Translations under genes and position numbers: made by a program
From: a bacterium
GTDB taxonomy: Bacteria; Patescibacteriota; Patescibacteriia; UBA9934
NCBI GenBank assembly: GCA_027592325.1
Contig: JAQCKO010000006.1
Location: forward strand, 1-59,038
Length of the DNA stretch: 59,038 nucleotides
Reading direction: 5' to 3'
The notes under the pieces: generated by a model
Database searches by the model: none
What the model was told of the DNA's origin: nothing
The model's input: only the letters and a program-made list of their open reading frames with translations
Shown here: positions 23,140-49,178 of the stretch, one piece after another
Layout of the letters: every line of letters starts with the position of its first letter
Position numbering within the stretch: the stretch's first letter is position 1

Positions 23140-23260
23140 GAAGTGCTCAAATTGCCGTAGATGCAGGTGCGCCCGCGAGCACCGAAATGAGCCGTACTAG
23201 ACCGTACGGTGAATGAGGCGCGCAGCTGCAAGCCTGCAGATGCGGTGATTTGAGCACTTC
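23140..23260. repeat. Palindromic MITE-like element, most complete copy
   Basis: 13-bp perfect termini GAAGTGCTCAAAT/ATTTGAGCACTTC extended by imperfect pairing; central CCGTAC/GTACGG. Confidence 0.7.
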
Positions 23261-34258: not shown

Positions 34259-35380
34259 TTAATGCCTTGCCGTTAAATACACTCCCTCCACCTGCTCTGC
34301 AACCTTATCCCAAGAAAAATCATGCTCAACAATCGCGCGTGCCTCTTCCCCACCATCATGAACACGCGATGTACTCCGAAGAAGCGACTGAAGCTTTTTC
34401 GTTAAATCATCCACATCTCCTTTCTTAAATGTCTCCCCGGATTGCTTAATCGCCTCTTTATTCCCTGCGATATCGGAAACAAGCGGCATCACCCCCGCTG
34501 CCATTGCTTCGAGCACGACAACAGGCAAACCTTCTGAATCGGAAGGATGTACATACAAATATGCTCCGGCAAAAATCTTCTCTACCACATCATGTGGCTG
34601 CCTTCCTAAAAACCGAATCCGATCATCCCCATCCGCTAGGGCAAATAATGCATCAACATAGCGAGCAGTATCGCTTGTATCGCCAACGAGAACGAGTCTG
34701 CGAGTCGTTCTCAGTCGTCGAAACGCCTCAATTAAATAATGTAGGCCTTTTTCTGGCACAAGGCGTCCTACAAACAGGATATACTCTTTCGACTTGATGC
34801 TAAATGCGGCCAGCGCCTGGTCTAAGTCTTTTTTCTTATACGCAACAATCTCTGCGCCATTTGGTATATACACCACCTGTTTTCCGAATGTTTCGCGACA
34901 ATACATCTGAATTTCATGCGAGACGGCAATGGTGTAATGCGGAAAAAGCACTGAAGCACGCTCTGAACATCGCAAATACATCCGGCCAAATAACCCCCAT
35001 TTTGCATGTAACGCATCGCGCGCATGAAAGGTGGCGATGACAGTTGTTTTTGGTCGGAACAGCCGAACAAGCGCACCAAATGTTGACGCACCTACGCCGT
35101 GGTAATGAACAATGTCGTAAGGATGCAGGACTACGTGAAGCGTCGCAACAAAGGCATGTATACCAGCCTCAACCCCTTTTATTGGGATCGTTGGAAGATA
35201 GACAAGTGGAATAGTGTCGATATGCGACTCAGGCTTCGCATAGTATCGCCGACGCGCAGCAACTCGCACGGCATGACCAGCCTTAAGAAGTCGAAGCGAT
35301 ACTTGCCGCACATGCTCCTCAATGCCCCCAAAACGCGTTGCATCGCCAATACCTTTTTGTCCAATCATGAAAATACGCAT
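34259..35380 (-). CDS. Glycosyltransferase family 4
   Basis: GGIEEHV, VGRLVPEKG, PSDSEGLPVVVLEAM. Confidence 0.92.
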   Translation of the reverse strand: MRIFMIGQKGIGDATRFGGIEEHVRQVSLRLLKAGHAVRVAARRRYYAKPESHIDTIPLVYLPTIPIKGVEAGIHAFVATLHVVLHPYDIVHYHGVGASTFGALVRLFRPKTTVIATFHARDALHAKWGLFGRMYLRCSERASVLFPHYTIAVSHEIQMYCRETFGKQVVYIPNGAEIVAYKKKDLDQALAAFSIKSKEYILFVGRLVPEKGLHYLIEAFRRLRTTRRLVLVGDTSDTARYVDALFALADGDDRIRFLGRQPHDVVEKIFAGAYLYVHPSDSEGLPVVVLEAMAAGVMPLVSDIAGNKEAIKQSGETFKKGDVDDLTKKLQSLLRSTSRVHDGGEEARAIVEHDFSWDKVAEQVEGVYLTARH

Positions 35381-35697
35381 AGCAGAAGTATAACAAACCG
35401 TGTACCACCACACCTGGGCGTTAAAAGGGTGCTACATGAACCAAACGCTCCGTAACCAAGTTACGGAATGATGGGTTCATCGTTGATGTTAAACGAGCGA
35501 AGCGATTTTGTCACAACGTTCCGCAGTATGCGAAGTCCCGCCCTTCTTTATCAGCACAAACTTTCACTTCACAACAAATCTAATTTACCGCTTTAAACTC
35601 TCAATTTCAAGAGCGGGATTTGAGTGAAGTGAAGAAGAAATTATTGATTTTTTTCCTTAAATTTAGGGCTTTTTTTAATTTTTTTGTCCTTCGTAAC

Positions 35698-35726
35698 TTG
35701 ACAGGTGGGAAGAGGTCTGCTATGAT
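35698..35726 (+). promoter_or_regulatory. Sigma70 promoter with extended -10
   Basis: TTGACA-17-TATGAT preceded by TG. Confidence 0.75.
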
Positions 35727-35764
35727 GTAAAGTCGCAATTCCGCGACTAATGTAGGAGGACAAC

Positions 35765-36151
35765 ATGAAGTACGCTTTTGTTCGGTACGACGTAAATCGC
35801 AAGGTTGCCGATGGCGGCACCAGCTTCCATAGCGTTCTGATCAAGGGAGAGGCGTCTGAAACCCGCGAATCCTGCCAGAGGTGGATCGAGGAGAACTTCT
35901 CGCCCAACGGCCCGGTCAGGATCCTCTACCGATTCGAGGTACCGGAGGTGTGGACAGAGGATGCGGGCGAGTTCGACGGCTGCCTGAACAGCGCCCTCGA
36001 TGCGGTGACGGGTCTCGACGCACTCACTAACAGTCCTCTGGCGTCCGACCTTCTCGGCGCGATCTTCATGGCGGGGTTCACCTGTGGTATGAGGTTCGAC
36101 TCGGAACTGCAGTCGGCGTTCTACCGAGGTGGCGCAGCCAAGAATAAGTAG
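35765..36151 (+). CDS. Hypothetical protein (antisense minigene inside S1)
   Basis: 128 aa, SD AGGAGG, own promoter, hairpin CGCCCTGTTC/GGACAGGGCG at about 36174-36203. Confidence 0.8.
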   Translation: MKYAFVRYDVNRKVADGGTSFHSVLIKGEASETRESCQRWIEENFSPNGPVRILYRFEVPEVWTEDAGEFDGCLNSALDAVTGLDALTNSPLASDLLGAIFMAGFTCGMRFDSELQSAFYRGGAAKNK

Positions 36152-36296
36152 CTATCGTGTACTTCCGTCAAAGACGCCCTGTTCGAGACATCTTGGACAG
36201 GGCGCTTCACTTTCTGAGAGAAAAAATTGAAAAGAGCCCAATTAAAAATGAAAAGCAAAATCAATAATTTCTTCTTCACGCAACCGCATACTCAGT

Positions 36297-36382
36297 GTTG
36301 TGCGATGTCGCGTAGCGATGAGCACGACAGCGACGATAGGCGCCGCCGTTGTGACGAAGAAGCGAAGCGATTTTGTCACAAC
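36297..36382. repeat. Empty micro-cassette module B + mini-site + D
   Basis: Same module at 43499-43584 and 44632-44717. Confidence 0.8.
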
Positions 36383-36472
36383 GTTTCTGCATATGCGATG
36401 TTTTGCGTAGCAAATATGGGTGAATTGAGTAGGAGGTACGACGACGAACGGACCGCATATTCTGTGTTAGGC
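36376..36472. repeat. attC-like site S2
   Basis: TCACAAC..ATATGCG / CGCATAT..GTTAGGC. Confidence 0.75.
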
Positions 36473-36489
36473 GATGGATAAATAATTTT

Positions 36490-36927
36490 CTATCTATTCA
36501 TGTGAATTGCCAAAACCGTCGGTCTCAATCCTAAAGCGCGGCAGCCGAGGAGTCTGGAATCTCCTGCTAGTAAGTTTGGTTGGTGTCCTTCTCGGAAAAG
36601 AACTACAGGAGCGGGTATGACTGCACCGTTCCTGAGTCCATCTTCGATTTTTTGAAAATCACGTTTGCCTTCCAGATGCTCATGTATTTGTTCACTTGTC
36701 CATGTTGTGTCTCGAGAATCACAATTTTTCATATTTTCCCACTCTTCATCACTAAGCTCCTGTAGCTCTGCTCGTTTGAATGCTTCGATAAGGGAATTAA
36801 GAGCAATTCCAGACTCCTTGGCATGTCTTTCAAGTTCTCCCATTTCTTCTGCAAGTGATGGTTTTAGCCATTGAGGTTTTGGCAATTCATTTTCTGCGCC
36901 AGCTTCATATGATGGAAATTCACTCAT
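36490..36927 (-). CDS. Cassette hypothetical protein (possible ParB/Srx-like C-terminal motif)
   Basis: 145 aa; APVVL...LLAGDSRL loosely resembles ParB-N. Confidence 0.7.
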   Translation of the reverse strand: MSEFPSYEAGAENELPKPQWLKPSLAEEMGELERHAKESGIALNSLIEAFKRAELQELSDEEWENMKNCDSRDTTWTSEQIHEHLEGKRDFQKIEDGLRNGAVIPAPVVLFREGHQPNLLAGDSRLLGCRALGLRPTVLAIHMNR

Positions 36928-36956
36928 ATTGATAGTTTAAAAATTTTAAATCTTTC

Positions 36957-37045
36957 GCCTAACGGCGGCGCCTGATGCGATCGTTTCGAGAGATAAAACC
37001 GAAGGTTTTAGATCGAGAAATGTCGCATAGGCGCTGCCGTTGTGA
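36957..37045. repeat. attC-like site S3 (type A)
   Basis: AACGGCGGCGCCTGATGCGA...TCGCATAGGCGCTGCCGTT; followed by D at 37039-37073. Confidence 0.8.
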
Positions 37046-37066
37046 CGAAGAAGCGAAGCGATTTCG

Positions 37067-37184
37067 TCACAACGTTCGCGCATATGCAGAGTTGTTGCGC
37101 GGTACAATTTAGCGCGGAGCGCTCTACCGCGCAACAATTTGGGTGAGCGACCGCAAGGAGCGAACTGCATATGCGCTGTTGTAC
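37067..37184. repeat. attC-like site S4
   Basis: CGCATATGCAG / CTGCATATGCG arms. Confidence 0.78.
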
Positions 37185-37198
37185 GATGTGCGGCTTTC

Positions 37199-37609
37199 TT
37201 ATTCTTTTACCGGTGTTCCTTGGTGAAATTTTAATTTCCAACCTTTCGGCGTTTTGACCCAGATAGAGCTTCTATTACCTACCTCTACTTCTCCATCATA
37301 CTCAACTTCGCTGGTGTAAGTAACCTGAATGACATCTTGGGCGATGGGGCGCATTTCAAAATTTTTAAAAGGTAGCCTTGCTTTGATTTCATCCCGACGT
37401 GCACCAAGCGTATCTTCCCGTTGGTATATGCGCCCCGATCGCCCGAATTCAAAAAAATCCGGAGCAAGTACACTTTCCATATATACTCTGTCAAATCGTG
37501 TTTCAGCTATCCACATTGAATCTTCAAGCTGCCTTAGTTTTTCACGGTCCTCCTTGCTAATCTCAATCTCTCGTTCGTGGCTCATAGCTAACTCTTTTTT
37601 TGAATTCAT
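37199..37609 (-). CDS. NTF2-like / DUF4440 family protein
   Basis: LAPDFFEFGRSG, RSSIW, WKLKFHQGT. Confidence 0.85.
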   Translation of the reverse strand: MNSKKELAMSHEREIEISKEDREKLRQLEDSMWIAETRFDRVYMESVLAPDFFEFGRSGRIYQREDTLGARRDEIKARLPFKNFEMRPIAQDVIQVTYTSEVEYDGEVEVGNRSSIWVKTPKGWKLKFHQGTPVKE

Positions 37610-37657
37610 ATGTCATTCAGGTTACGTTAGTAAATGATTTTAAGAAAGCCGCATTTC

Positions 37658-37798
37658 GTACAGCGGCGGCGTGTATGAGAAGTTTCGCCGACTTCCTTAT
37701 CCTTATTATAGAGGAAGTGAAATTTGGGTGAAAGAAAAAGTGCAACCTTTGAAAATTATTACGCATTTTTTTCTTGAACCTCATACACGCTGTTATGT
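37658..37798. repeat. attC-like site S5 (R box degenerate: AGC)
   Basis: GCGTGTATGAG / CTCATACACGC arms; closely similar to S6. Confidence 0.72.
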
Positions 37799-38359
37799 GC
37801 TGTTGGTTGCCGATTTAATCGCACTGAATATTGAATGATAATCAATACTTTCAAAGTCGGTAGTGTCTATGTCAAAAACTTTGCCTCCTATATTAAGGGC
37901 CCGATATTCGCCTTTTAGTAGAACTTCTTTGAACTCATCATAGTTTTGATCGTCAACGTGACCTGGATGACGCTCGCGAGATTCCGAACGCTTTTTGAAA
38001 CGCTCAAAGAGAATTTCGCCGTCGGTTTTGCACATTACTTGCATTGCCTGAAAATCATATTTTTTCTGCAAATCAAGGAATCTCTCTTCGTCATATTCAG
38101 GTTTCAGTGGTGTTTCTATGATGAATGAATTTTTTGACTCTAGCAGCGTTTCGATGAGGTGATAGAGAATGTTATAACTTGCAATCCCTAGCTTCTTTGA
38201 CCATTCACGATCTTTCACGCCAAGAGAATCAAAGAGAGATTCCTTGATGTCATCACGACTAATTAAAGGCAGGCGAAATTCTCGTGCTATTTTCTTTGCA
38301 AGAGTCGTTTTTCCGGTACACGGAGGGCCCGATATTATTAAAAGCAAAGTTTTTGACAT
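37793..38359 (-). CDS. P-loop kinase (AAA_33-like)
   Basis: IISGPPCTGKTT; stop TAA inside the GCACATAAC R box. Confidence 0.85.
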   Translation of the reverse strand: MSKTLLLIISGPPCTGKTTLAKKIAREFRLPLISRDDIKESLFDSLGVKDREWSKKLGIASYNILYHLIETLLESKNSFIIETPLKPEYDEERFLDLQKKYDFQAMQVMCKTDGEILFERFKKRSESRERHPGHVDDQNYDEFKEVLLKGEYRALNIGGKVFDIDTTDFESIDYHSIFSAIKSATNST

Positions 38360-38389
38360 GTTTTTATTTTAACTTAGGCAACCAATTGC

Positions 38390-38531
38390 ACATAACGTTT
38401 GCGTGTGTGAGAAGTTTCGCCGACTTTCTTCATTTTATAAATAGAGGGGGCGAAATTTGGGTGAAAGAAATAGTGCAACCTTTGAAAATTATTACGCATT
38501 TTTTTCTTGAACCTCATACACGATGTTGTAC
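38390..38531. repeat. attC-like site S6
   Basis: CGTGTGTGAG / CTCATACACG arms. Confidence 0.78.
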
Positions 38532-38557
38532 GATGTTGCGAGACAACCGTCGTTGCA

Positions 38558-38863
38558 TTATTCCGTTCTATCTAAAATTATTCTTTGCTTAAAACCACCA
38601 CGTTCTTTCGCTTTTTTCTGGCGGACTTCTTCGAGCATCTGCAAATCCACACCTTTCAGAGCGCAAATTGCGTGTAAAACTTCTAAAATATCAGCGGCCT
38701 CTTCCACGCTTGGATTTTCTAGAAATTCACCGACTTCTTCGTGCAACTTGCGCGTCAAAGCTTCCTCGTACTCTTTTTCTTCAGCAATATGAGTAATCGG
38801 CGTCTCACCTTTATTTTGTATGATCTCGGGAATGTTATCCCTGACTAATTTGTTGTATTCCAT
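38558..38863 (-). CDS. MazG-superfamily NTP pyrophosphohydrolase (KLVRD-IPE type)
   Basis: YNKLVRDNIPEII, KLHEEVGEF, EAADILEV, RGGFKQRI. Confidence 0.85.
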   Translation of the reverse strand: MEYNKLVRDNIPEIIQNKGETPITHIAEEKEYEEALTRKLHEEVGEFLENPSVEEAADILEVLHAICALKGVDLQMLEEVRQKKAKERGGFKQRIILDRTE

Positions 38864-38908
38864 AAGAAAAAGCGGAATTAATATATAATAGGTTGTCTTG
38901 CGATTTCG

Positions 38909-39036
38909 TCACAACGTTTCTGACATGCGAAGTTGAAAACCCCCGCCTCCTAGTTCAATCTTATCAATAAGAGCAGGGTTTTCAATTTGGGTGAGGGCTT
39001 TCATAAAAAGCCCGAACCACATGTCCAGTGTTAGCT
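38909..39036. repeat. attC-like site S7
   Basis: GACATG / CATGTC arms; AATTTGGGTG...AACC core. Confidence 0.72.
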
Positions 39037-39205
39037 GAAATATTCCTTTTCTTTTCCTACGATAGTCGGTTGTTTTGAAAATTTTCAAATTTCTTTTCGA
39101 CAATGAGGAGGAAGAGCGAATATTAACAATTTAACACACAAATGGTAGTTTGTAATGTCATTTCTTGACCCGATCAGCTGTGGTTAGCTGGTATTGGAGG
39201 AGTCC

Positions 39206-39589
39206 ATGAATCGCACGATCAGGCTGACCGAGCTGTCTTTCGAGGACGGCATCACCAGACGGGACTCTGAGGTGAAGTACTTCGTTCAGGCGGAGTACAG
39301 CTACGTGGAAAATGAGGTCATCATGGGCCTTTACGCTGGTGACGAACACTTCGACCGAGTGTGGAGCTTTCCGATCGAGCTCCTGCTCGAGGGCCGAGTG
39401 GTCGACTTCAGCAACTTTGAAGGCCCTTACATCCTCGCCGATGCAGTACTTGCAATCGTCGCCGAGAACACGTCCGTCAGGCTCCACTTCGTGGAGGACC
39501 GAAGCGTAGTTAGCATCACGGTTTGTGATGAGACCGTCTCTCACCCTCTGGACAACGACGTGGCTCGCCGGATGTTCAGAGGGATCTGA
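39206..39589 (+). CDS. Hypothetical protein (antisense cassette minigene)
   Basis: SD GGAGGAG at 39196, ATG 39206; hairpin GAACCGCCTAC/GTGGGCGGTTC downstream. Confidence 0.8.
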   Translation: MNRTIRLTELSFEDGITRRDSEVKYFVQAEYSYVENEVIMGLYAGDEHFDRVWSFPIELLLEGRVVDFSNFEGPYILADAVLAIVAENTSVRLHFVEDRSVVSITVCDETVSHPLDNDVARRMFRGI

Positions 39590-39723
39590 CCTCCGATCGA
39601 CTCCCCGCCCCCTACGAACCGCCTACTGGTTCATCTGGTGGGCGGTTCTTCGTTTTAGAAAGAAATTTGAAAATTTTAAAACAATTGGGCGACAGCCCAG
39701 AAAAGAAAAGGAATATTTCAGCT

Positions 39724-39780
39724 AACAGCGACGATAGGCGCCGCCGTTGTGACGAAGAAGCGAAGCGGTTTCGTCACAAC
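39724..39780. repeat. Mini-site + empty micro-cassette D
   Basis: AACAGCGACGATAGGCGCCGCCGTT then GTTGTGACGAA...TTCGTCACAAC. Confidence 0.78.
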
Positions 39781-39867
39781 GTCAGGGATATGAGAAGTTG
39801 CGACCGTAAGGAGCAATTTGGGCGGAGGATTTTGTACAAAGCCGTAGCCTCATACACGCTGTTATAT
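39774..39867. repeat. attC-like site S8
   Basis: ATGAG / CTCAT arms; AAGTTGC..GCAATTTGGGCG core. Confidence 0.7.
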
Positions 39868-39953
39868 TCCCGAAGGGCTGAAATTTAGTGCAACGTCCCG
39901 AAGGGAAATTTTAGAGTTGTCGTGTCTAAAACAAAATTGTAGTCGGGCACACA

Positions 39954-40991
39954 CTAATTCTCAAATATTTTTTCAATCAATTTAAATTCTTTTTTATGGC
40001 AATCAAACTCAGCTTTTATTCCTAATGGCAAAATCCATTGCGGATCAGTATGACCAAAATCCATATTCGTGATTATCGGAAGACTTAAATTATTAAACTC
40101 AGTATTTACCACATTGAGAACATTTTCGTTTAAACTTTTCTTTTCATCTTCAGAATAGTCTCTTGGTCTTCCGATAAGCAATGCGGAGATTTTGTCAAAC
40201 ACTCCTTGTATTCCATAGTTTCGTAGCATCCATTTGACTTGGTCTGGAGATGGCTTGTCTTCAGATGTTTCTAAGAAAAGGATTTTGCCATTCCAAAAAT
40301 CATCATTAGGCCAATATTTTGTGCTTTTCATAAATTCAAGAACCTCAATACAACCGCCAAATAATTCTCCTTGAATTTTTGAACTTCCTTGTAAAATATT
40401 CCAGCCAGTATTTTTTGACATTGGTTTTACTTGCCCGACATTGGACTTGTCTCCCCAATCCAAATATCCCTCGGAATAAGAATCATATGACTTGTATTCA
40501 TAATTTTCTGGATTTTCAAATAAGATTGTTTTGACATGCTCTTGGAAATTTTTCCCTAATGCATCCCATTGAGAAAATCCTGCCATGATTGCAGGACCAT
40601 GTAGAGTGACAAGTCCTAATTGATTAAAGTATGTCAAAAGAGTGGTTGTATCAGAATAACCGATGATGATTTTTGGGTTTTTCCGAATTACATCTACACT
40701 TAGAAAAGGCATTATTCTTACAGAATCATCCCCGCCGATTGATACAAAAATTGCTTTCACTTCTTCATCAGCAAAAGCATCATTTATATCTTTGGCTCTA
40801 AATTCCGGATTTTTGTAAAGATAATCTGCATCTTTTCTTGCAGAGGGATATTCTTTAATTTTAAGACCTAAATTTTCAAGCGTCTTAATGCCTGATTCAT
40901 AAATATGAGGAAAAACACTTGGTCCGCCCCACGATGGAGATACAATTGCAACGATATCTCCTTTCTGTAATTTTTTTAGTTTGATTGCCAT
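39954..40991 (-). CDS. S66 family peptidase (LD-carboxypeptidase / MccF-like)
   Basis: IVSPSWG, SIGGDDS, IGYSDTT, LFLETSE, MDFGHTDP. Confidence 0.92.
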   Translation of the reverse strand: MAIKLKKLQKGDIVAIVSPSWGGPSVFPHIYESGIKTLENLGLKIKEYPSARKDADYLYKNPEFRAKDINDAFADEEVKAIFVSIGGDDSVRIMPFLSVDVIRKNPKIIIGYSDTTTLLTYFNQLGLVTLHGPAIMAGFSQWDALGKNFQEHVKTILFENPENYEYKSYDSYSEGYLDWGDKSNVGQVKPMSKNTGWNILQGSSKIQGELFGGCIEVLEFMKSTKYWPNDDFWNGKILFLETSEDKPSPDQVKWMLRNYGIQGVFDKISALLIGRPRDYSEDEKKSLNENVLNVVNTEFNNLSLPIITNMDFGHTDPQWILPLGIKAEFDCHKKEFKLIEKIFEN

Positions 40992-41063
40992 ACTATTTTG
41001 ATAAATTGATTGATTTATATAATTTGTATGCCCGACTACTCCTAATTAATTTGCACGACAATT

Positions 41064-41150
41064 GAATATACGGTGGCGCCTGATGCGTTCGTTTCGAGAG
41101 ATAAAACCGAAGGTTTTAGATCGAGAAATGTCGCATAGGCGCTGTTGTGC
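41064..41150. repeat. attC-like site S9 (type A, left R box degenerate)
   Basis: GAATATAC instead of ATATAAC; type A body. Confidence 0.72.
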
Positions 41151-41177
41151 GATGTTATAAAATATTAAATTTTATCC

Positions 41178-41726
41178 TTACAATTTTAATACAGATTTCA
41201 AAGCGGCTGGAAGTTCGTTTACTCCATCGTCACCGCTAAAATGTTTCATATCTTGTTGAATAATAATGTCTGCGCTGAGGTTATTCCTGAAGAAGTCGGC
41301 ATAATGAAGCGAAACATACGGATCATTGGATGAATGAATGGCTACAAATTTATCGCAGTGAGATTTTATTTTAGACCAATCTATTTTACTTTGGAAAAAT
41401 GTGTCCAATTCATCATAGCCCAGATTTGAAGTGAAACCAGCGACTAAAACTGCGCCGCCAATTTTTTGATCTGCCTTGAGCGACTCGATATATCTCAATA
41501 TTATAATACTACCCAAACTATGACCAACGAAATAGCAGTTTTCATCTGGGCTACCGACAAGTTTTTTCAAATGATCTAGCCATTCATTCATCTTTGGTTT
41601 CGCTGAATTTGGCATCAAAGGAACAATTACCTCAAACCCGTGTTTCTCCAAATCATTCTTGAGCCAAGGATACCACCCATGTTCGGGTGAACCTTCCCAG
41701 CCGTGTATTAAAATTGCTTTTTTCAT
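41178..41726 (-). CDS. RBBP9/YdeN-family alpha/beta hydrolase
   Basis: IHGWEGSP...WYPWL, VGHSLG, HSSNDPYV, KHF. Confidence 0.92.
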   Translation of the reverse strand: MKKAILIHGWEGSPEHGWYPWLKNDLEKHGFEVIVPLMPNSAKPKMNEWLDHLKKLVGSPDENCYFVGHSLGSIIILRYIESLKADQKIGGAVLVAGFTSNLGYDELDTFFQSKIDWSKIKSHCDKFVAIHSSNDPYVSLHYADFFRNNLSADIIIQQDMKHFSGDDGVNELPAALKSVLKL

Positions 41727-41755
41727 AATCGTAAAATGTAATATTTTTTATTTCG

Positions 41756-41832
41756 TCACAACGTCAGTTGTATCTGATGTTGCGAAGCAAATATGGGTGG
41801 AACGTAGCGGAACCGCATAGCCAGTGTTATGT
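41756..41832. repeat. attC-like site S10
   Basis: TCACAAC...GGGTG..AACCGCATAGCCAGTGTTATGT. Confidence 0.7.
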
Positions 41833-41858
41833 GCAATACCCTTCGTCCGTCATCTTTG

Positions 41859-42677
41859 TCATAGCAAACCTTTACCAGAATTGATAACAATGATTTTATC
41901 TTCCTTTTTTATTTTCAAATCTGACAACACCCCAAATACAATAGCACTGGAAGGCTCACATTTGATGTATTTTTTTGCAAGTGAGTAGGCTTGTTTTATT
42001 GTTTCTTCTGACAATCTAATTACTTTGTGTTTGCGCCAAAATATTGATTTCATTTTTGAGGAATAAGGTGTCCAGGGAGTGTGAAGTTTATCAGCAAAAG
42101 ACGGACTACTTTTTGGCGCAACACCAATAAGCGTGGTATTCAATTTGTATTTTTTTATTCCATTAAACAAGCCTGCGAACGTCTCGCCGCTACCCACTGG
42201 CGTGATTAAAAAATTTGGCCGGCTGTTTTTGATTTCTTTGATGATGTCCTCATATGCATCGTGCCAGCCATTAGTCACGTCCCAGATGACTTCCTCGTCA
42301 GTTTCTCTCGCCAAAGAAATAACCTCTTCAGGTTTGAGTATGTGAGATGACAAATCAACCTGAATAACTTTGCAAGAAACGGTGACGAGATTTTCGTAAA
42401 TTGTGGCAGGAAGTTTTTTATCAACAATACAGACGACTTTAAGATTGGAGCCGTTGGCAAATTTGGCGAGAGAAACGCCAGCATTTCCGGACGTGATGAG
42501 TGCTAGCTTATCAATATGTTCATCCAGCGCTTTCTTGACGATAGCTTCGGAGCGCCTATCTTTGTATGTCCCAAATGGATTTTTAGACTCGTCTTTAATA
42601 AAAAGATTAGGCAGACCAAATTTTTTACAAAAATATTCTTCTTTAATTAAGGGGGTGTTGCCTGATTTATATTTCAT
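41859..42677 (-). CDS. PLP-dependent fold-type II enzyme (threonine synthase/cysteine synthase-like)
   Basis: GNTPLI, KDESKNPFGTYKDR, TSGNAG, PVGSGET, CEPSSA. Confidence 0.88.
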   Translation of the reverse strand: MKYKSGNTPLIKEEYFCKKFGLPNLFIKDESKNPFGTYKDRRSEAIVKKALDEHIDKLALITSGNAGVSLAKFANGSNLKVVCIVDKKLPATIYENLVTVSCKVIQVDLSSHILKPEEVISLARETDEEVIWDVTNGWHDAYEDIIKEIKNSRPNFLITPVGSGETFAGLFNGIKKYKLNTTLIGVAPKSSPSFADKLHTPWTPYSSKMKSIFWRKHKVIRLSEETIKQAYSLAKKYIKCEPSSAIVFGVLSDLKIKKEDKIIVINSGKGLL

Positions 42678-42748
42678 AATGACAAAATCATTGTGACATT
42701 GTATAAAAACATTTCTACAATGTCAGCAATAAGGACGAAGGGCATTGC

Positions 42749-42900
42749 ACATAACGGCGGCGCCTGATGCGATCGTTTCGAGAGATAAAACCGAAGGTTT
42801 TAGATCGAGAAATGTCGCATAGGCGCTGTTGCGACCAACGGGAGCGAGAATGTAGGTGAAGGCCGAGCCGAGGCCTGAACCGCATATCGTGCTGTTAGGC
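42749..42900. repeat. attC-like sites S11 (type A) and S12 separated by a 12-nt body
   Basis: Type A at 42753-42830; GTTGCGACCAAC at 42828-42839; S12 ends AACCGCATATCGTGCTGTTAGGC. Confidence 0.7.
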
Positions 42901-43012
42901 GAGGGTTCATTTTGGCTTCCTTATTATTTAATCAAGAAAAGATCCAAAATGAAAGCGCAGCGCCCCCTTACGTTTATTTTTCCAAACTGCTTTTCACACC
43001 AGCTTTCGCTAC

Positions 43013-43041
43013 TTGACAGTTTGCCCACCTCATGGTAATCT
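43013..43041 (+). promoter_or_regulatory. Sigma70 promoter with extended -10
   Basis: TTGACA-17-TAATCT preceded by TG. Confidence 0.7.
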
Positions 43042-43099
43042 GCAACGTCCTTTGGACTGCGCCTCAAGTGGGGCGTAAACCCGCACTTTGGAAGAAGAA

Positions 43100-43303
43100 A
43101 TGAAAGTCAAGACTTTCGTGGTCGGATTGGTCGATGGGGTGGTCCCATCGTTGACACGACTCGACGAATGCGTCGCCGAGCTCGGTAATGTCGTCATCCA
43201 CAGCTTGGTCGACACCGTCTACTCGGCGGATAGCAATTCGTTAGGAAGACCGCCGGGTGAGCGCATCGCTCGAGTGATCGTCTACACACCCGAGAGCAGG
43301 TAG
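43100..43303 (+). CDS. 67-aa hypothetical protein (antisense cassette minigene)
   Basis: Own promoter; hairpin CCCGTGTTTG/CAAACACGGG downstream. Confidence 0.7.
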   Translation: MKVKTFVVGLVDGVVPSLTRLDECVAELGNVVIHSLVDTVYSADSNSLGRPPGERIARVIVYTPESR

Positions 43304-43419
43304 CCCCCCGTGTTTGCACGCAACATCGTCAAACACGGGCGGGCAAACACATTCACTCTACCGAGTGTTTTTTTATTGTACAAAATTTTCATGAAAAGCG
43401 ATTTGATAAAATAAATGTC

Positions 43420-43584
43420 GCCTAACGGCGGCGCCTGATGCGATCGTTTCGAGAGATAAAACCGAAGTTTTTAGATCGAGAAATGTCGCATAGGCGCTGT
43501 TGTGCGATGTCGCGTAGCGATGAGCACGACAGCGACGATAGGCGCCGCCGTTGTGACGAAGAAGCGAAGTGATTTCGTCACAAC
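43420..43584. repeat. attC-like S13 (type A) + B + mini-site + D
   Basis: Near-identical to 44553-44717. Confidence 0.82.
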
Positions 43585-43687
43585 GTTTATGAATATCTGA
43601 TGTTTTCATCCCGTTTCATGGAGATAAAGTTTATTTTTCAGGCATTCTTTGTTCGTAAATATTCCGCCCAGATATTCATTGTTATGT
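43578..43687. repeat. attC-like site S14
   Basis: ATGAATATCTG / CAGATATTCAT arms. Confidence 0.78.
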
Positions 43688-43731
43688 GATGTAGCCAGAA
43701 ATTTCTATTCCTAAATTATTTTGTTGGTAAT

Positions 43732-44002
43732 TTATTGTTTGACTTCGATGCTTTCCGAAGCAATATTTTTTTGCTTATCTTTCTTGCCCACGACTAATTG
43801 ATAGATTTTTCTTACAACAATAATGAATACTACAAACCCTACAATTTCAGCGACTGCCTCAAGATTTGCTGCTGCCCTTGGGCCTGAAATTCCCATCGGA
43901 CCTAACACAAATGGCCCAGACAATAAAAGCGTGTATTTAGCGATCATCCATGCGACGTAACCTACTAATACACTTGCGATACCTCCGAGTATTTTTTTTC
44001 AT
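43732..44002 (-). pseudogene. Small membrane protein cassette, frameshifted in an A8 run right after ATG
   Basis: ATG 44002 + A8 is out of frame with KKILGGIASVLVGYVAWMIAKY...; A7 would give a ~89-aa two-TM protein. Confidence 0.6.
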
Positions 44003-44114
44003 AAGCTTTTGAATAACGTTATGTAATTGGTTAAATTTTATCACAAGCTATGTTCGACCTGAAATAAATTGCCAAAAAAATCTAAAAAATAATAAAGAAA
44101 TTTCTGGCTATTTC

Positions 44115-44192
44115 ACATAACGTTTCTGAATATCTGAAGTTGCGATAGCAATTTGGGTGAAGCGAAGCGGAACCAGATATTCAGTGTTATCG
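44115..44192. repeat. attC-like site S15
   Basis: CTGAATATCTG / CAGATATTCAG arms. Confidence 0.8.
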
Positions 44193-44203
44193 GATGTAAT
44201 TTT

Positions 44204-44527
44204 TTATTTATCTTTTTTCAGCCATGCATTGCTGATCCACTTTTTATCAATAGCTTCTTCTAAGTCGATACCGAGAAGATGAGCATTGACCATTGCCATA
44301 CCAACAACATCAGCAAGCTCTTTTGCCACCTCTCTTTTTGAAACATCTTCCGTCACATGTTTCTCTGGACGACTCTTTTTTCTATGAATCAAAACTGCTT
44401 GCGAAAATTCACCAACCTCTTCATATAATTTTATCAATGCGAAATCTTCGTCAATTTCAACATCATACTCCTTACCGTAACGGATAGCATTCTCCACTAC
44501 TTTTTGTTGTATATCTTTGAATTTCAT
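44204..44527 (-). CDS. MazG-like nucleotide pyrophosphohydrolase
   Basis: KLYEEVGEFSQA, KELADVV, DLEEAIDKKW. Confidence 0.85.
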   Translation of the reverse strand: MKFKDIQQKVVENAIRYGKEYDVEIDEDFALIKLYEEVGEFSQAVLIHRKKSRPEKHVTEDVSKREVAKELADVVGMAMVNAHLLGIDLEEAIDKKWISNAWLKKDK

Positions 44528-44552
44528 AAAAAGAAAAATTAAAAATTATTTC

Positions 44553-44717
44553 CGATAACGGCGGCGCCTGATGCGATCGTTTCGAGAGATAAAACCGAAG
44601 GTTTTAGATCGAGAAATGTCGCATAGGCACTGTTGTGCGATGTCGTGTAGCGATGAGCACGACAGCGACGATAGGCGCCGCCGTTGTGACGAAAAAGCGA
44701 AGCGATTTCGTCACAAC
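44553..44717. repeat. attC-like S16 (type A) + B + mini-site + D
   Basis: First module of the array in transcription order. Confidence 0.82.
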
Positions 44718-44775
44718 TCGTTTTTATCCGAACATTATAATACGATTTTAGCAATTATTGTACATAATACGAACT
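44711..44775 (-). promoter_or_regulatory. Candidate attI site and Pc promoter
   Basis: GATAAAAACGAG|TTGTGA core, 9-bp direct repeat, extended -10 TGCTAAAAT. Confidence 0.45.
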
Positions 44776-44901: not shown

Positions 44902-44977
44902 TGGTGCGCCGGGTGGGATTCGAACCCACGACCACGGGCTTAAAAGGCCCTTGCTCTACCAACTGAGCTACCAGCGC
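44902..44977 (-). tRNA. tRNA-Lys(UUU)
   Basis: 76-nt cloverleaf, anticodon TTT, TTCGAAT T-loop, encoded CCA. Confidence 0.97.
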
Positions 44978-49120: not shown

Positions 49121-49178
49121 CGTACGGTGAATGAGGCGCGGAGCTGCAAGCCTGTAGATGCGGTGATTTGAGTGCTTC
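49121..49178. repeat. MITE-like family, right half
   Basis: Near-identical to 23203-23260. Confidence 0.75.

Follow-up and report, generated by a model that had tools for sequence, protein, structure and literature searches.

Long cassette-specific inverted repeats in a Patescibacteria gene array point to an integron-like gene-capture system

Introduction

In the first 59,038 nt of a contig assigned to Patescibacteria (JAQCKO010000006.1 of the assembly GCA_027592325.1; the entire stretch is hereafter termed the window), ~20 hairpin-forming repeats between positions 35488 and 44717 alternate with short single open reading frames (ORFs), and most of the gene cassettes delimited in this way end in long inverted repeats. 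Which kind of recombination system would make use of such cassette ends? The borders of the hairpins, ...AAC and GTT..., are as in integron attC sites, while the window encodes no tyrosine recombinase gene (a phmmer search with IntI1 included, which yielded zero matches). Integron integrases are thought to have been derived from Xer recombinases by gaining an extra domain for folded single strands, and both the genesis of cassettes and the choice of strand in integrons are open questions. The cassette ends, the hairpins and the recombinases of related loci described below point to a putative, undescribed integron-like gene-capture system in tiny uncultured bacteria of the Patescibacteria type.

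Results

Complementarity between the two ends of a cassette

The long inverted repeats at the cassette ends are confirmed, as an inverted-repeat search recovered every pair that an initial annotation of the window had quoted (Table 1). When positions are counted from the GTT/AAC anchor, the 14 nt at positions 12-25 matched at 10-14 of 14 positions in nine of the 11 ORF-bearing cassettes, and the complementarity indeed runs past the 7-bp R box as had been annotated. Non-cognate ends matched on average at 5.8 and at most at 10 of the 14 positions (72 pairings). We also aligned the first half of each cassette, with gaps allowed, with the reverse complement of its last half, and this alignment exceeded all of 200 shuffles in nine of the 11 cassettes (exceptions, 38525 and 42896). 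The repeats in the window are 23 to ~70 nt in length, reaching ~105 nt with gaps, and the median of ~31 nt takes in all of the untranslated sequence at the 5' and 3' ends of a cassette; the 5' untranslated regions (UTRs) of the cassette ORFs have a median of ~48 nt and the 3' UTRs are ~30 nt, and the repeats span nearly all of them. A TG opposite TT at positions 10-11 is seen in seven of the nine cleanly anchored cassettes in the window, the remaining two (39030 and 41826) bearing AA/TT as claimed.

Cassettes of classical integrons were consulted for comparison. Bouvier et al. (2009) stated that the self-pairing in most cassettes exceeds the 7-nt R boxes and reaches 9-11 consecutive nucleotides, and we rely on this statement for the classical chromosomal arrays (e.g., Vibrio). 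Our own controls were six class 1 arrays, for which automatic parsing was error-prone, and the comparison was confined to those cassettes whose parse was clearly right (blaCARB-2, blaIMP-1, aacA4, aadB, arr-3, dfrA12, dfrA15, and aadA). These cassettes pair over 7-12 nt, and no fixed wobble was found in them; their matches at positions 12-25 stayed at the chance level of 0-6 of 14, which was true of all parses, right or wrong. Complementarity of the extent seen here is thus not routine in known cassettes, as the class 1 controls stop at 7-12 nt and the cassettes in Bouvier et al. (2009) at 9-11 nt. We found nothing relevant in the searchable literature on integrons or Xer cassette arrays in the candidate phyla radiation/Patescibacteria.

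To enlarge the sample, public genomes and metagenomes were scanned for the stems of the commonest hairpin type, which returned contigs of Berkelbacteria, Peregrinibacteria, Uhrbacteria, and Omnitrophota as well as 23 metagenome contigs (individual contigs are labeled with L numbers below). Cassettes were then searched for by anchoring on GTT...AAC, with complementarity at positions 12-25 as the sole further requirement; by our own calculation, ~0.01 hits per 8 kb are expected by chance. The 33 pairs that passed comprised five cassette pairs of the window, approximately two dozen elsewhere and a few spurious or nested ones. Altogether, 22 further cassettes from 18 other contigs were retained, giving 31 cassettes with the nine in the window. 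At position 11, the GTT side has G in 28 and the AAC side T in 30 of the 31 cassettes, and position 10 bears T in 24, facing T or G; the agreement at the remaining positions ranges from 81 to 100%.

Among the 27 junctions that could be aligned without gaps, 92% of the cells pair, against 60% after shuffling, and the covariation score is 0.81, against 0.19 for shuffled and 0.16-0.21 for slid partners. As the sample was selected on positions 12-25, the covariation there is partly built in, while positions 4-11 were unselected. The AAC/GTT boxes are invariant in these junctions. Position 11 is U·G in 25, U-A in two and G-C in none of them, and at position 10, where T·T, T·G and Watson-Crick pairs all occur, 15 junctions are unpaired. 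The larger sample therefore bears out that the outer stem and the positions flanking the defect covary, that the place of the defect is conserved (position 11, 25/27), and that the outer stem is private to each cassette but kept complementary. The last point is illustrated by homologous cupin cassettes in L016 (TTGCCAAAAAGC / GCTTTTTGGCAA) and L020 (TTACCAAAAGC / GCTTTTGGTAA), of which the stems differ by one compensatory substitution and one compensatory 1-nt indel. The 405-nt cassettes of L017 and L029, considered as another homologous pair, turned out to be unrelated.

Anatomy of the hairpin sites

The motif at the cassette ends, in which GAWGT faces ATTTC across a G·T wobble, is found again in the L box inside the hairpins. 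In type-A sites (n = 26), the L' strand reads GCGCCTGATGC followed by GAAGT, GATGT, GGAGT or GACGT and faces ATTTC or ATGTC joined to GCATAGGCGC. All 12 type-B L boxes have either ATGT with ATAT (four sites) or AAGT or GAGT with ATTT (eight sites), position 10 covarying and the G·T at position 11 being constant (12/12). The L arm of the type-B site at 44119 shows the GAAGT:ATTTC motif again, together with the wobble. In type-B sites, a large bulge of 20-50 nt (GGGTGA...GAAC) lies on the 3'-side L arm, where classical sites have their extrahelical bases (G and T on the L'' arm of the bottom strand).

By sequence comparison, each site is made up of two dyad-related, dif/Xer-like arms of 12 bp. 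For the R arm, ATTTC-NNRY-AA↓C faces GTT-RYNN-GAWGT (the arrow indicates the putative crossover), the consensus of its 5' strand being 5'-A-T-T/G-T/G-C-NNRY-AA↓C and that of its 3' strand 5'-GTT-RYNN-G-A/C-T-G-T. For the L arm, AAT-RYNN-GAAGT faces ATTT(bulge)C-NNRY-ATT. Pair 11 is a conserved G·T in either arm, the wobble thus marking the two arms alike, and pair 10 of the R arm is usually T·T. The central region between the arms measures ~8 nt (5' side) and 1-4 nt (3' side), with spacers of ~5-8 nt on the 5' arm and 1-4 nt on the 3' arm; the central spacer of classical sites is symmetric, with 5-6 unpaired nt. The sites share with attC an imperfect hairpin with RYYYAAC ... GTTRRRY borders and R and L boxes. 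In length and in the sequence ATTTC-ACAT-AA↓, the arms are similar to Xer half-sites, with a resemblance to the XerD arm of E. coli dif.

The initial annotation regarded the cassette ends as a second stem with a TG/TT defect, which would extend an attC hairpin in the excised circle. The fixed position of the defect stands, and so does the extension of the R-box stem of a site in the circle, the arms being the two ends of single cassettes. Read on the folding strand, the defect comprises a T·T mismatch and a G·T wobble (the sense strand of the ORF would have A·A and A·C), of which the G·T, at position 11, is alone in being near-invariant. What was regarded as a second stem is, at positions 8-12, better explained as the outer part of a 12-bp binding arm, since the same motif and wobble occur in the L box of the hairpin. 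The proposed role of the defect as a recombinase-recognition element agrees with its fixed position, and it may well act as such. The term attC applies as an analogy, as the recombinase of relatives is Xer-like and lacks the IntI-specific domain (see below).

The conserved TG was also considered as a start codon (ATG at + strand positions 9-11), a stop codon or a -10 element, but the variants CTG, AAG, and CCG break these readings, and the recurrence of the motif in the L box likewise counters explanations by reading frame. An energy-based finder of AAC...GTT hairpins missed most of the sites and produced false hits outside the array, and was replaced by anchored repeat searches and motif reading. 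The linear array, for which the initial annotation had raised an alternative fold, is indeed predicted to fold, as single-stranded DNA (ssDNA), into hairpin, cassette-end stem and hairpin. No Rfam family matched the hairpins in the array.

Composite Y-shaped sites are predicted at 43424-43552 and 44557-44685 (fold, -39 to -44 kcal/mol). In addition, six GTT...AAC hairpins with a GCGAAGC loop carry no ORF and may be 'empty cassettes'; in related contigs, hairpins with this GCGAAGC-type loop have other stems, which covary.

Crossover point and folding strand

The contigs L015 and L028 share 99.5% identity over 7.5 kb, but one of them lacks a unit present in the other, namely a hairpin and the cassette body to its right. 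Because the junction of this indel falls inside CACAA↓C, the crossover should be placed at the AAC boxes on the + strand of the window (G↓TT on the minus strand) and not at the GTT of the + strand. In the recombinase-proximal site of relatives, the boundary between variable and conserved sequence is directly after AAC as well. The hairpin of each ORF lies to its left in window coordinates, that is, downstream of the ORF on the sense strand as in integrons. Both the crossover between A and C of the bottom-strand AAC and the cassette composed of an ORF and its downstream site are thus what the sequence suggests here, as for attC. At the level of sequence comparison, the cassette ends are thus shown to be the two halves of a 12-bp R arm split by the crossover at AA↓C; the motif is found at the cassette ends because a crossover inside the R arm puts its halves at opposite ends after integration.

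Accepting this, the minus strand is the ORF sense (top) strand in the array and the + strand is expected to be the bottom strand that folds. Several observations are in line with this assignment. The ORFs are on the strand opposite the folding strand in 27 of 31 cassettes, and the arm duplex on the + strand is the more stable one in 25 of 30. The oligonucleotide d(GCGAAGC) is an unusually stable DNA mini-hairpin, and all 13 GCGNAGC motifs of the array lie on the + strand, with none on the minus strand (77:25 in other loci). The recombinase gene of relatives is divergent from the cassette ORFs, on the side expected if the + strand is the bottom strand. Nearly all genes in the window lie on the minus strand. 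The + strand has an excess of C throughout, suggesting that it is the leading-strand template; most chromosomal integrons are oriented with the folding strand on the leading-strand template (Loot et al., 2017). No sign change of GC skew was found at the array in the window. The opposite assignment, in which the + strand is the top strand with the extra bases in its 5' arm, was dropped after the indel between L015 and L028, and is also countered by the position of the recombinase, the orientation of the ORFs and the strand bias of GCGNAGC.

A recombinase and a dif-like site in related loci

In the metagenome contig L016, a gene for a 289-aa tyrosine recombinase lies 80 nt past the end of the array, divergent from the cassette ORFs. 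This protein passes the cut-off of NF040815 (recomb_XerA_Arch; 231.5 bits against 220) and fails that of the integron-integrase model TIGR02249 (194.9 bits in two stretches against 265). Aligned to IntI1, it has two gaps, of 30 and 12 residues, both inside IntI1 residues 198-255, and these gaps (~40 residues) fall in the region of the IntI-specific domain. This additional domain (around patch III) is held in the literature to be defining and necessary for integron integrases. An integron integrase was thus found neither among the genes in the window nor in the protein of L016, which belongs to the Xer family. The family of this recombinase is very large in Patescibacteria, and the named closest relatives of both the housekeeping and recombinase proteins are Patescibacteria.

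Seven loci of relatives, for which the full upstream sequence was available, share a conserved site just upstream of the recombinase promoter region (TTGAAAATTAGTTAAAAT). It is composed of a cassette-type arm ending in AA↓C, then (A)AGTT-ATATRYGAACT, and then TGTT. The left neighbor is a different cassette-type arm in each locus, ending in AAC (ATTTCATTTAAC, ATTTCTGTCTAAC, ATTTCCGATAAC, ATTTTGGGCAAC, and others). The layout, ATTTCNNNNAA-CAAGTT-ATATRYGAACT, is that of a 28-bp, dif-like 11-6-11 site in all of the seven loci, and can also be written as AAC-AAGTTATATACGAACTT. An eighth locus, L041, retains only the promoter-proximal part. Cassettes are present at the conserved site in L016, L042, and L040, including one with the ends GTTGCCCGATGTAATGGCGCTC / GTTGCCCAAAATAATGGCGCTG in L042. 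Four of the contigs with a recombinase (L041, L045, L046, and L047) begin a mere 60-220 nt before the gene, as would be expected if assemblies break at repetitive arrays, and such arrays are therefore probably under-represented in assemblies.

Layout of the array and cassette mobility

The array (Table 1) is bordered by a gene for a GT4 glycosyltransferase (34259-35413) on one side and by tRNA-Lys (44902-44977) and then murG on the other. The cassette ORFs encode a DUF4440 protein, an AAA_33 kinase, two MazG-like proteins, an LD-carboxypeptidase, a serine hydrolase, a PALP enzyme and several unknowns. The neighbor of the terminus at 44705-44736 is tRNA-Lys and not a recombinase gene as in relatives, and the array in the window is an orphan for this reason. 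With ~20 attC-type sites and no recombinase in 59 kb, it has the makeup of a cluster of attC sites lacking an integron integrase (CALIN; at least two such sites in series, integrase absent nearby).

Table 1. Coordinates of the array, its cassettes and its hairpin sites in the window. Cassettes are named by their first position; paired sequences are the two ends of a cassette.
Feature	Position	Strand	Details
Whole array	35488-44717		Hairpin recombination sites alternating with single-ORF cassettes
Cassette, 145-aa ORF	36466-36963	-	Arms 36466-36505 / 36924-36963 (40 nt); TG 36475-36476 opposite TT 36953-36954
Cassette, DUF4440	37178-37664	-	GTTGTACGA-TG-TGCGGCTTTCTTA / TAAGAAAGCCGCA-TT-TCGTACAGC; AAC box degenerate (AGC); inverted repeat recovered as 37174-37201/37641-37668
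Cassette, AAA_33 kinase-like	37792-38396	-	Arms 37792-37811 / 38377-38396; second nested repeat 37869-37902 / 38326-38359, taking in the start-codon region of the ORF
Cassette, 101-aa ORF	38525-38915	-	GTTGTACGA-TG-TTGCGAGACAACC / GGTTGTCTTGCGA-TT-TCGTCACAAC; arms ~25 nt; R box with 1-nt indel
Cassette, high-GC ORF 39194-39589 (+)	39030-39726	+	Perfect 27-28-nt arms, AA/TT at 10-11 (no defect); recovered as 39029-39056/39700-39727 (28 nt, 100%); nested repeat 39074-39096 / 39659-39681; total repeat ~68 nt
Cassette, LD-carboxypeptidase	39861-41071	-	Degenerate R box GTTATATTC / GAATATAC; displaced inner repeats
Cassette, serine hydrolase	41144-41762	-	GTTGTGCGA-TG-TTATAAAATATTAAATTTTA / TAAAATGTAATATTTTTTA-TT-TCGTCACAAC; 1-nt indel
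Cassette, PALP enzyme	41826-42755	-	Arms 41826-41848 / 42733-42755; AA/TT at 10-11 (no defect); weaker similarity runs on to ~105 nt
Cassette, high-GC ORF 43088-43303 (+)	42894-43426	+	Pairing limited to 9-bp R box GTTAGGCGA / TCGCCTAAC; displaced repeat 42970-42996 / 43392-43418
Cassette, 71-aa ORF	43681-44121	-	GTTATGTGA-TG-TAGCCAGAAATTTCT / AGAAATTTCTGGCTA-TT-TCACATAAC; repeat 43681-43706/44096-44121 (26 nt, 92%), continuing to ~56 nt; end stem present in the predicted ssDNA fold of the + strand
Cassette, MazG-like	44186-44559	-	Arms 44186-44217 / 44528-44559 (32 nt, 88%), spanning the entire 5' UTR plus the 3' end
Type-A hairpin, example	36961-37054	+	AAC GGCG GCGCCT-G-ATGCGA ... TCGCATAGGCGC TGCC GTT
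Type-A hairpin, five near-identical copies	36939, 41047, 42731, 43402, 44535 (repeat coordinates)		Sites start at 36961, 41069, 42753, 43424, 44557
Type-B hairpin, example	44119-44197	+	R arm ATTTCACATAA↓C; central GTTTCTG; L' AATATCTGAAGT pairs with ATTT-(bulge GGGTGAAGCGAAGCGGAA)-CCAGATATT; then GTTATCGGATGT
ORF-less GTT...AAC hairpin, GCGAAGC loop	44683-44717	+	One of six copies
ORF-less hairpin, starts of copies	35488, 36348, 37039, 39746, 43550, 44683		GTTGTGACGAA-GAAGCGAAGCGA-TTTCGTCACAAC; starts derived from repeat coordinates
Array terminus, top-strand 5' end	44705-44736	+	ATTTCGTCACAA↓C TCGTTTTTATCCGAACATT; resembles the conserved dif-like site of relatives

The cassettes at 39861-41071 and 42894-43426 are degenerate, being left with an R box of 8-9 bp and displaced inner repeats. 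In two cassettes, the start-codon region of the ORF has been copied, inverted, within its own 3' end, namely at 37869-37902 / 38326-38359 and in the cassette at 39861-41071 (ORF 39954-40991; read from an alignment, coordinates approximate). Such copies suggest template-switch events that rewrote C-termini. Another high-GC ORF on the + strand (35765-36151, within 35508-36300) sits in the 3'-arm bulge of a type-B hairpin and is bordered by a perfect 23-nt inverted repeat (35629-35651 / 36257-36279); those at 39194-39589 and 43088-43303 are likewise flanked by repeats, and one of the high-GC + strand ORFs has promoter-like and terminator-like sequences of its own.

Cassette mobility is seen in the array itself. 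The contig L048 is 99.96% identical to the window over 19.3 kb (reverse complement) and possesses, between window positions 37052 and 37066, two additional sites together with one extra cassette, which has a 143-aa ORF. Its ends, GTTAAGTGA-TG-TGCTTATTTCAAC / GTTGAAATAAGCA-TT-TCACTTAAC, follow the rule described above. The difference between the two contigs attests directly to the gain or loss of a cassette in this array. In the reverse strand of L001 (Berkelbacteria; 1-2400), several MazG-like ORFs are truncated at the 5' end exactly where a composite element beginning GACA↓GTTGTGCGATGTCGC... joins, which suggests recombination of sites into coding sequence.

Outside the array, dispersed intergenic repeats were noticed at 898-955, 23203-23260, and 49121-49178, and as the pairs 22767-22804/45093-45130, 21881-21917/45026-45062, and 23139-23177/56302-56340. 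Some of the dispersed repeats adjoin the two tRNA genes, and no Rfam family was found for them at the gathering threshold.

Discussion

A candidate mechanism and its competitors

We lean, by a modest degree, toward regarding the array as an integron-like cassette store of a Patescibacteria type, in which arms and clamps would be handled by an Xer-like recombinase. Each site would fold as a hairpin of the + (bottom) strand and present two 12-bp Xer/dif-like arms. The wobble and the mismatch would be read by the recombinase or would make the two strands unequal; the bottom strand would offer ATTTC...AA↓C and the top strand ACATC...AA↓C, from which strand and orientation could be chosen, and the two non-canonical pairs would do some of the work in strand choice that classical attC sites leave to extrahelical bases. 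Beyond position 12, the cassette-specific stem probably serves as a clamp, keeping the weakened 12-bp R arm double-stranded in the excised single-stranded circle, and may draw two neighboring hairpins together in the array. The enzyme would be a compact, 285-aa XerA-family recombinase without the IntI insertion, of the kind that sits beside such arrays in relatives, using the adjacent double-stranded, dif-like 11-6-11 site as the point of insertion. Template switching between the arms would create and homogenize the stems, which selection would then filter; template switching is probably the source of the stems, because start regions were copied inverted into the 3' ends of ORFs and the defect appears 'repaired' in two cassettes.

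Several observations weigh against this mechanism. Two cassettes in the window lack the defect and two lack the long stem, and the clamp leaves stems of 60-100 nt, or those running into coding sequence, unexplained. The type-A sites in the window carry a variant L box (GATCG / ATGTC) and a G that bulges from the cleaved (5') arm, the reverse of where classical sites have their extrahelical bases. The computed difference in stability between the strands is small (mean, -0.9 kcal/mol), DNA duplex energies barely separating them, and outside positions 10-11 the excess of G·T over A·C is a weak trend (20:10, p ~0.1). Finally, the window encodes no recombinase, so that the link to an Xer-like enzyme comes from related contigs (three with arrays and seven with the full site).

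The long private repeats could instead be functionless by-products of intramolecular template switching (quasi-palindrome conversion) nucleated by pairing of the R boxes, the inner 12 nt alone being functional. The inverted copies of ORF starts (37869-37902 / 38326-38359 and in 39861-41071), the very variable repeat length (23 to ~105 nt), the 'correction' of the defect to AA/TT in two cassettes, and compensatory indels such as that between L016 and L020, which is the product expected from conversion, are all in its favor. Nevertheless, the repeats are near-universal, occurring in nine of the 11 cassettes in the window and in the cassettes of many unrelated contigs; the R boxes of classical arrays pair as well without such spread; and the two-base defect persists inside converted stems, which needs selection on at least that part. 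We thus regard functionless conversion as unlikely, though it deserves to be taken seriously. As a generating mechanism, conversion is compatible with the arm-and-clamp mechanism, and the sole difference is whether the stem is used.

We consider it very improbable that the cassettes are modules with inverted double-stranded Xer sites undergoing ordinary Xer recombination, like the pdif modules of Acinetobacter. The resemblance of the arms to Xer half-sites, the mutually inverted module ends and the association with an Xer-family recombinase would all be accounted for, but each cassette end has one half-site joined to a hairpin of 60-130 nt and the complete 11-6-11 site is absent from the borders. 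Moreover, the indels remove a hairpin and a cassette with an AA↓C junction, as in integron-type excision, and the cassette-specific outer stem would be left without explanation. We find it scarcely credible that the repeats act in RNA, with the 5' UTR of the cassette mRNA pairing with the 3' end and thereby stabilizing the transcript or controlling translation. The repeats do span essentially the whole 5' and 3' UTRs, but it is the sense strand that bears A·A and A·C at positions 10-11, the wobble sitting on the antisense strand; the arm motif also occurs inside the recombination hairpins, the DNA-type GCGNAGC mini-hairpins are confined to the antisense strand, and the promoter-like sequences of some cassettes, as read by eye, fall inside the repeat. 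Some arms are A/T-rich (e.g., 44186 and 41144), as would be anticipated from a chance or low-complexity effect in AT-rich spacers, but we give such an effect practically no credence, as the controls refute it: matches of cognate ends (10-14/14) against a non-cognate maximum of 10, observed values attained by no shuffle, and 33 pairs passing an anchored search against ~0.01 hits expected per 8 kb.

Comparison with known systems

The sequences examined here give the impression that an integron-type array works with an Xer-type enzyme devoid of the IntI domain. We tentatively entertain a more general proposal, which we regard as possible but would not yet defend, that integron-like gene capture by a compact Xer-family recombinase, not IntI, is widespread in Patescibacteria and some neighboring phyla, with a dif-like insertion site, two-arm hairpins marked by wobbles and private stems that rebuild the R arm, and that it represents either an independent invention or a surviving stage before IntI. 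If confirmed, the array would provide a form of the integron, either intermediate or parallel, that can be put to the test, a rule of strand choice that can be read from sequence and is distinct from extrahelical bases, and a marker for such arrays (GTTRYNNGATGT ... ATTTCNNRYAAC together with private stems). Integron finders based on the integrase would report these arrays as orphan clusters at best. The system also bears on the movement of genes among ultra-small uncultured bacteria.

The array shares with integron attC arrays the single-ORF cassettes between imperfect hairpins bounded by AAC/GTT, the putative crossover in the AAC of the folding strand that leaves the R-box halves at opposite cassette ends, the order of an ORF followed by its own site, and an insertion site adjoining a divergent recombinase gene; a modest extension of the R box to 9-11 nt has already been described (Bouvier et al., 2009). 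In contrast to attC, the arms are 12 bp and have a conserved outer motif that occurs, G·T wobble included, in the L box as well, the private pairing extends over 23-100 nt whereas that of the class 1 controls ends at 7-12 nt, the unpaired bases are a long 5'-arm spacer and the large GGGTGA...GAAC bulge, and the recombinase of related arrays has no IntI-specific domain. Xer/dif systems with a single recombinase (XerS/difSL, and XerA/dif of some archaea) are similar in the match to the XerA model, the adjacent 11-6-11 site, the gene and the site forming one module, and the outer part of the arm differing between half-sites. Here, however, gene cassettes with their hairpin sites fill the site as an array. 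Xer/dif modules resolve chromosome dimers at the replication terminus, and no change of GC skew accompanies the array in the window.

The pdif modules of Acinetobacter plasmids also place genes between inverted Xer-type sequences, but those are complete 28-bp double-stranded XerC/D sites, alternating in orientation, at both borders, with neither hairpins nor module-specific outer stems, whereas half-sites joined to hairpins flank the cassettes studied here. In integrative mobile elements exploiting Xer (IMEX) of the CTXphi type, a folded single-stranded attP mimics dif, one strand exchange takes place and resolution is replicative. The likeness is that an Xer enzyme would act on an ssDNA hairpin with deliberate mispairs; the differences are that tandem single-gene cassettes take the place of phage genomes, and that the mispairs are in the outer arm and not in the central region. 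Altogether, the system appears to work like an integron, yet no integron integrase was found with it, and it is probably nearest to a hybrid of integron and Xer/IMEX logic.

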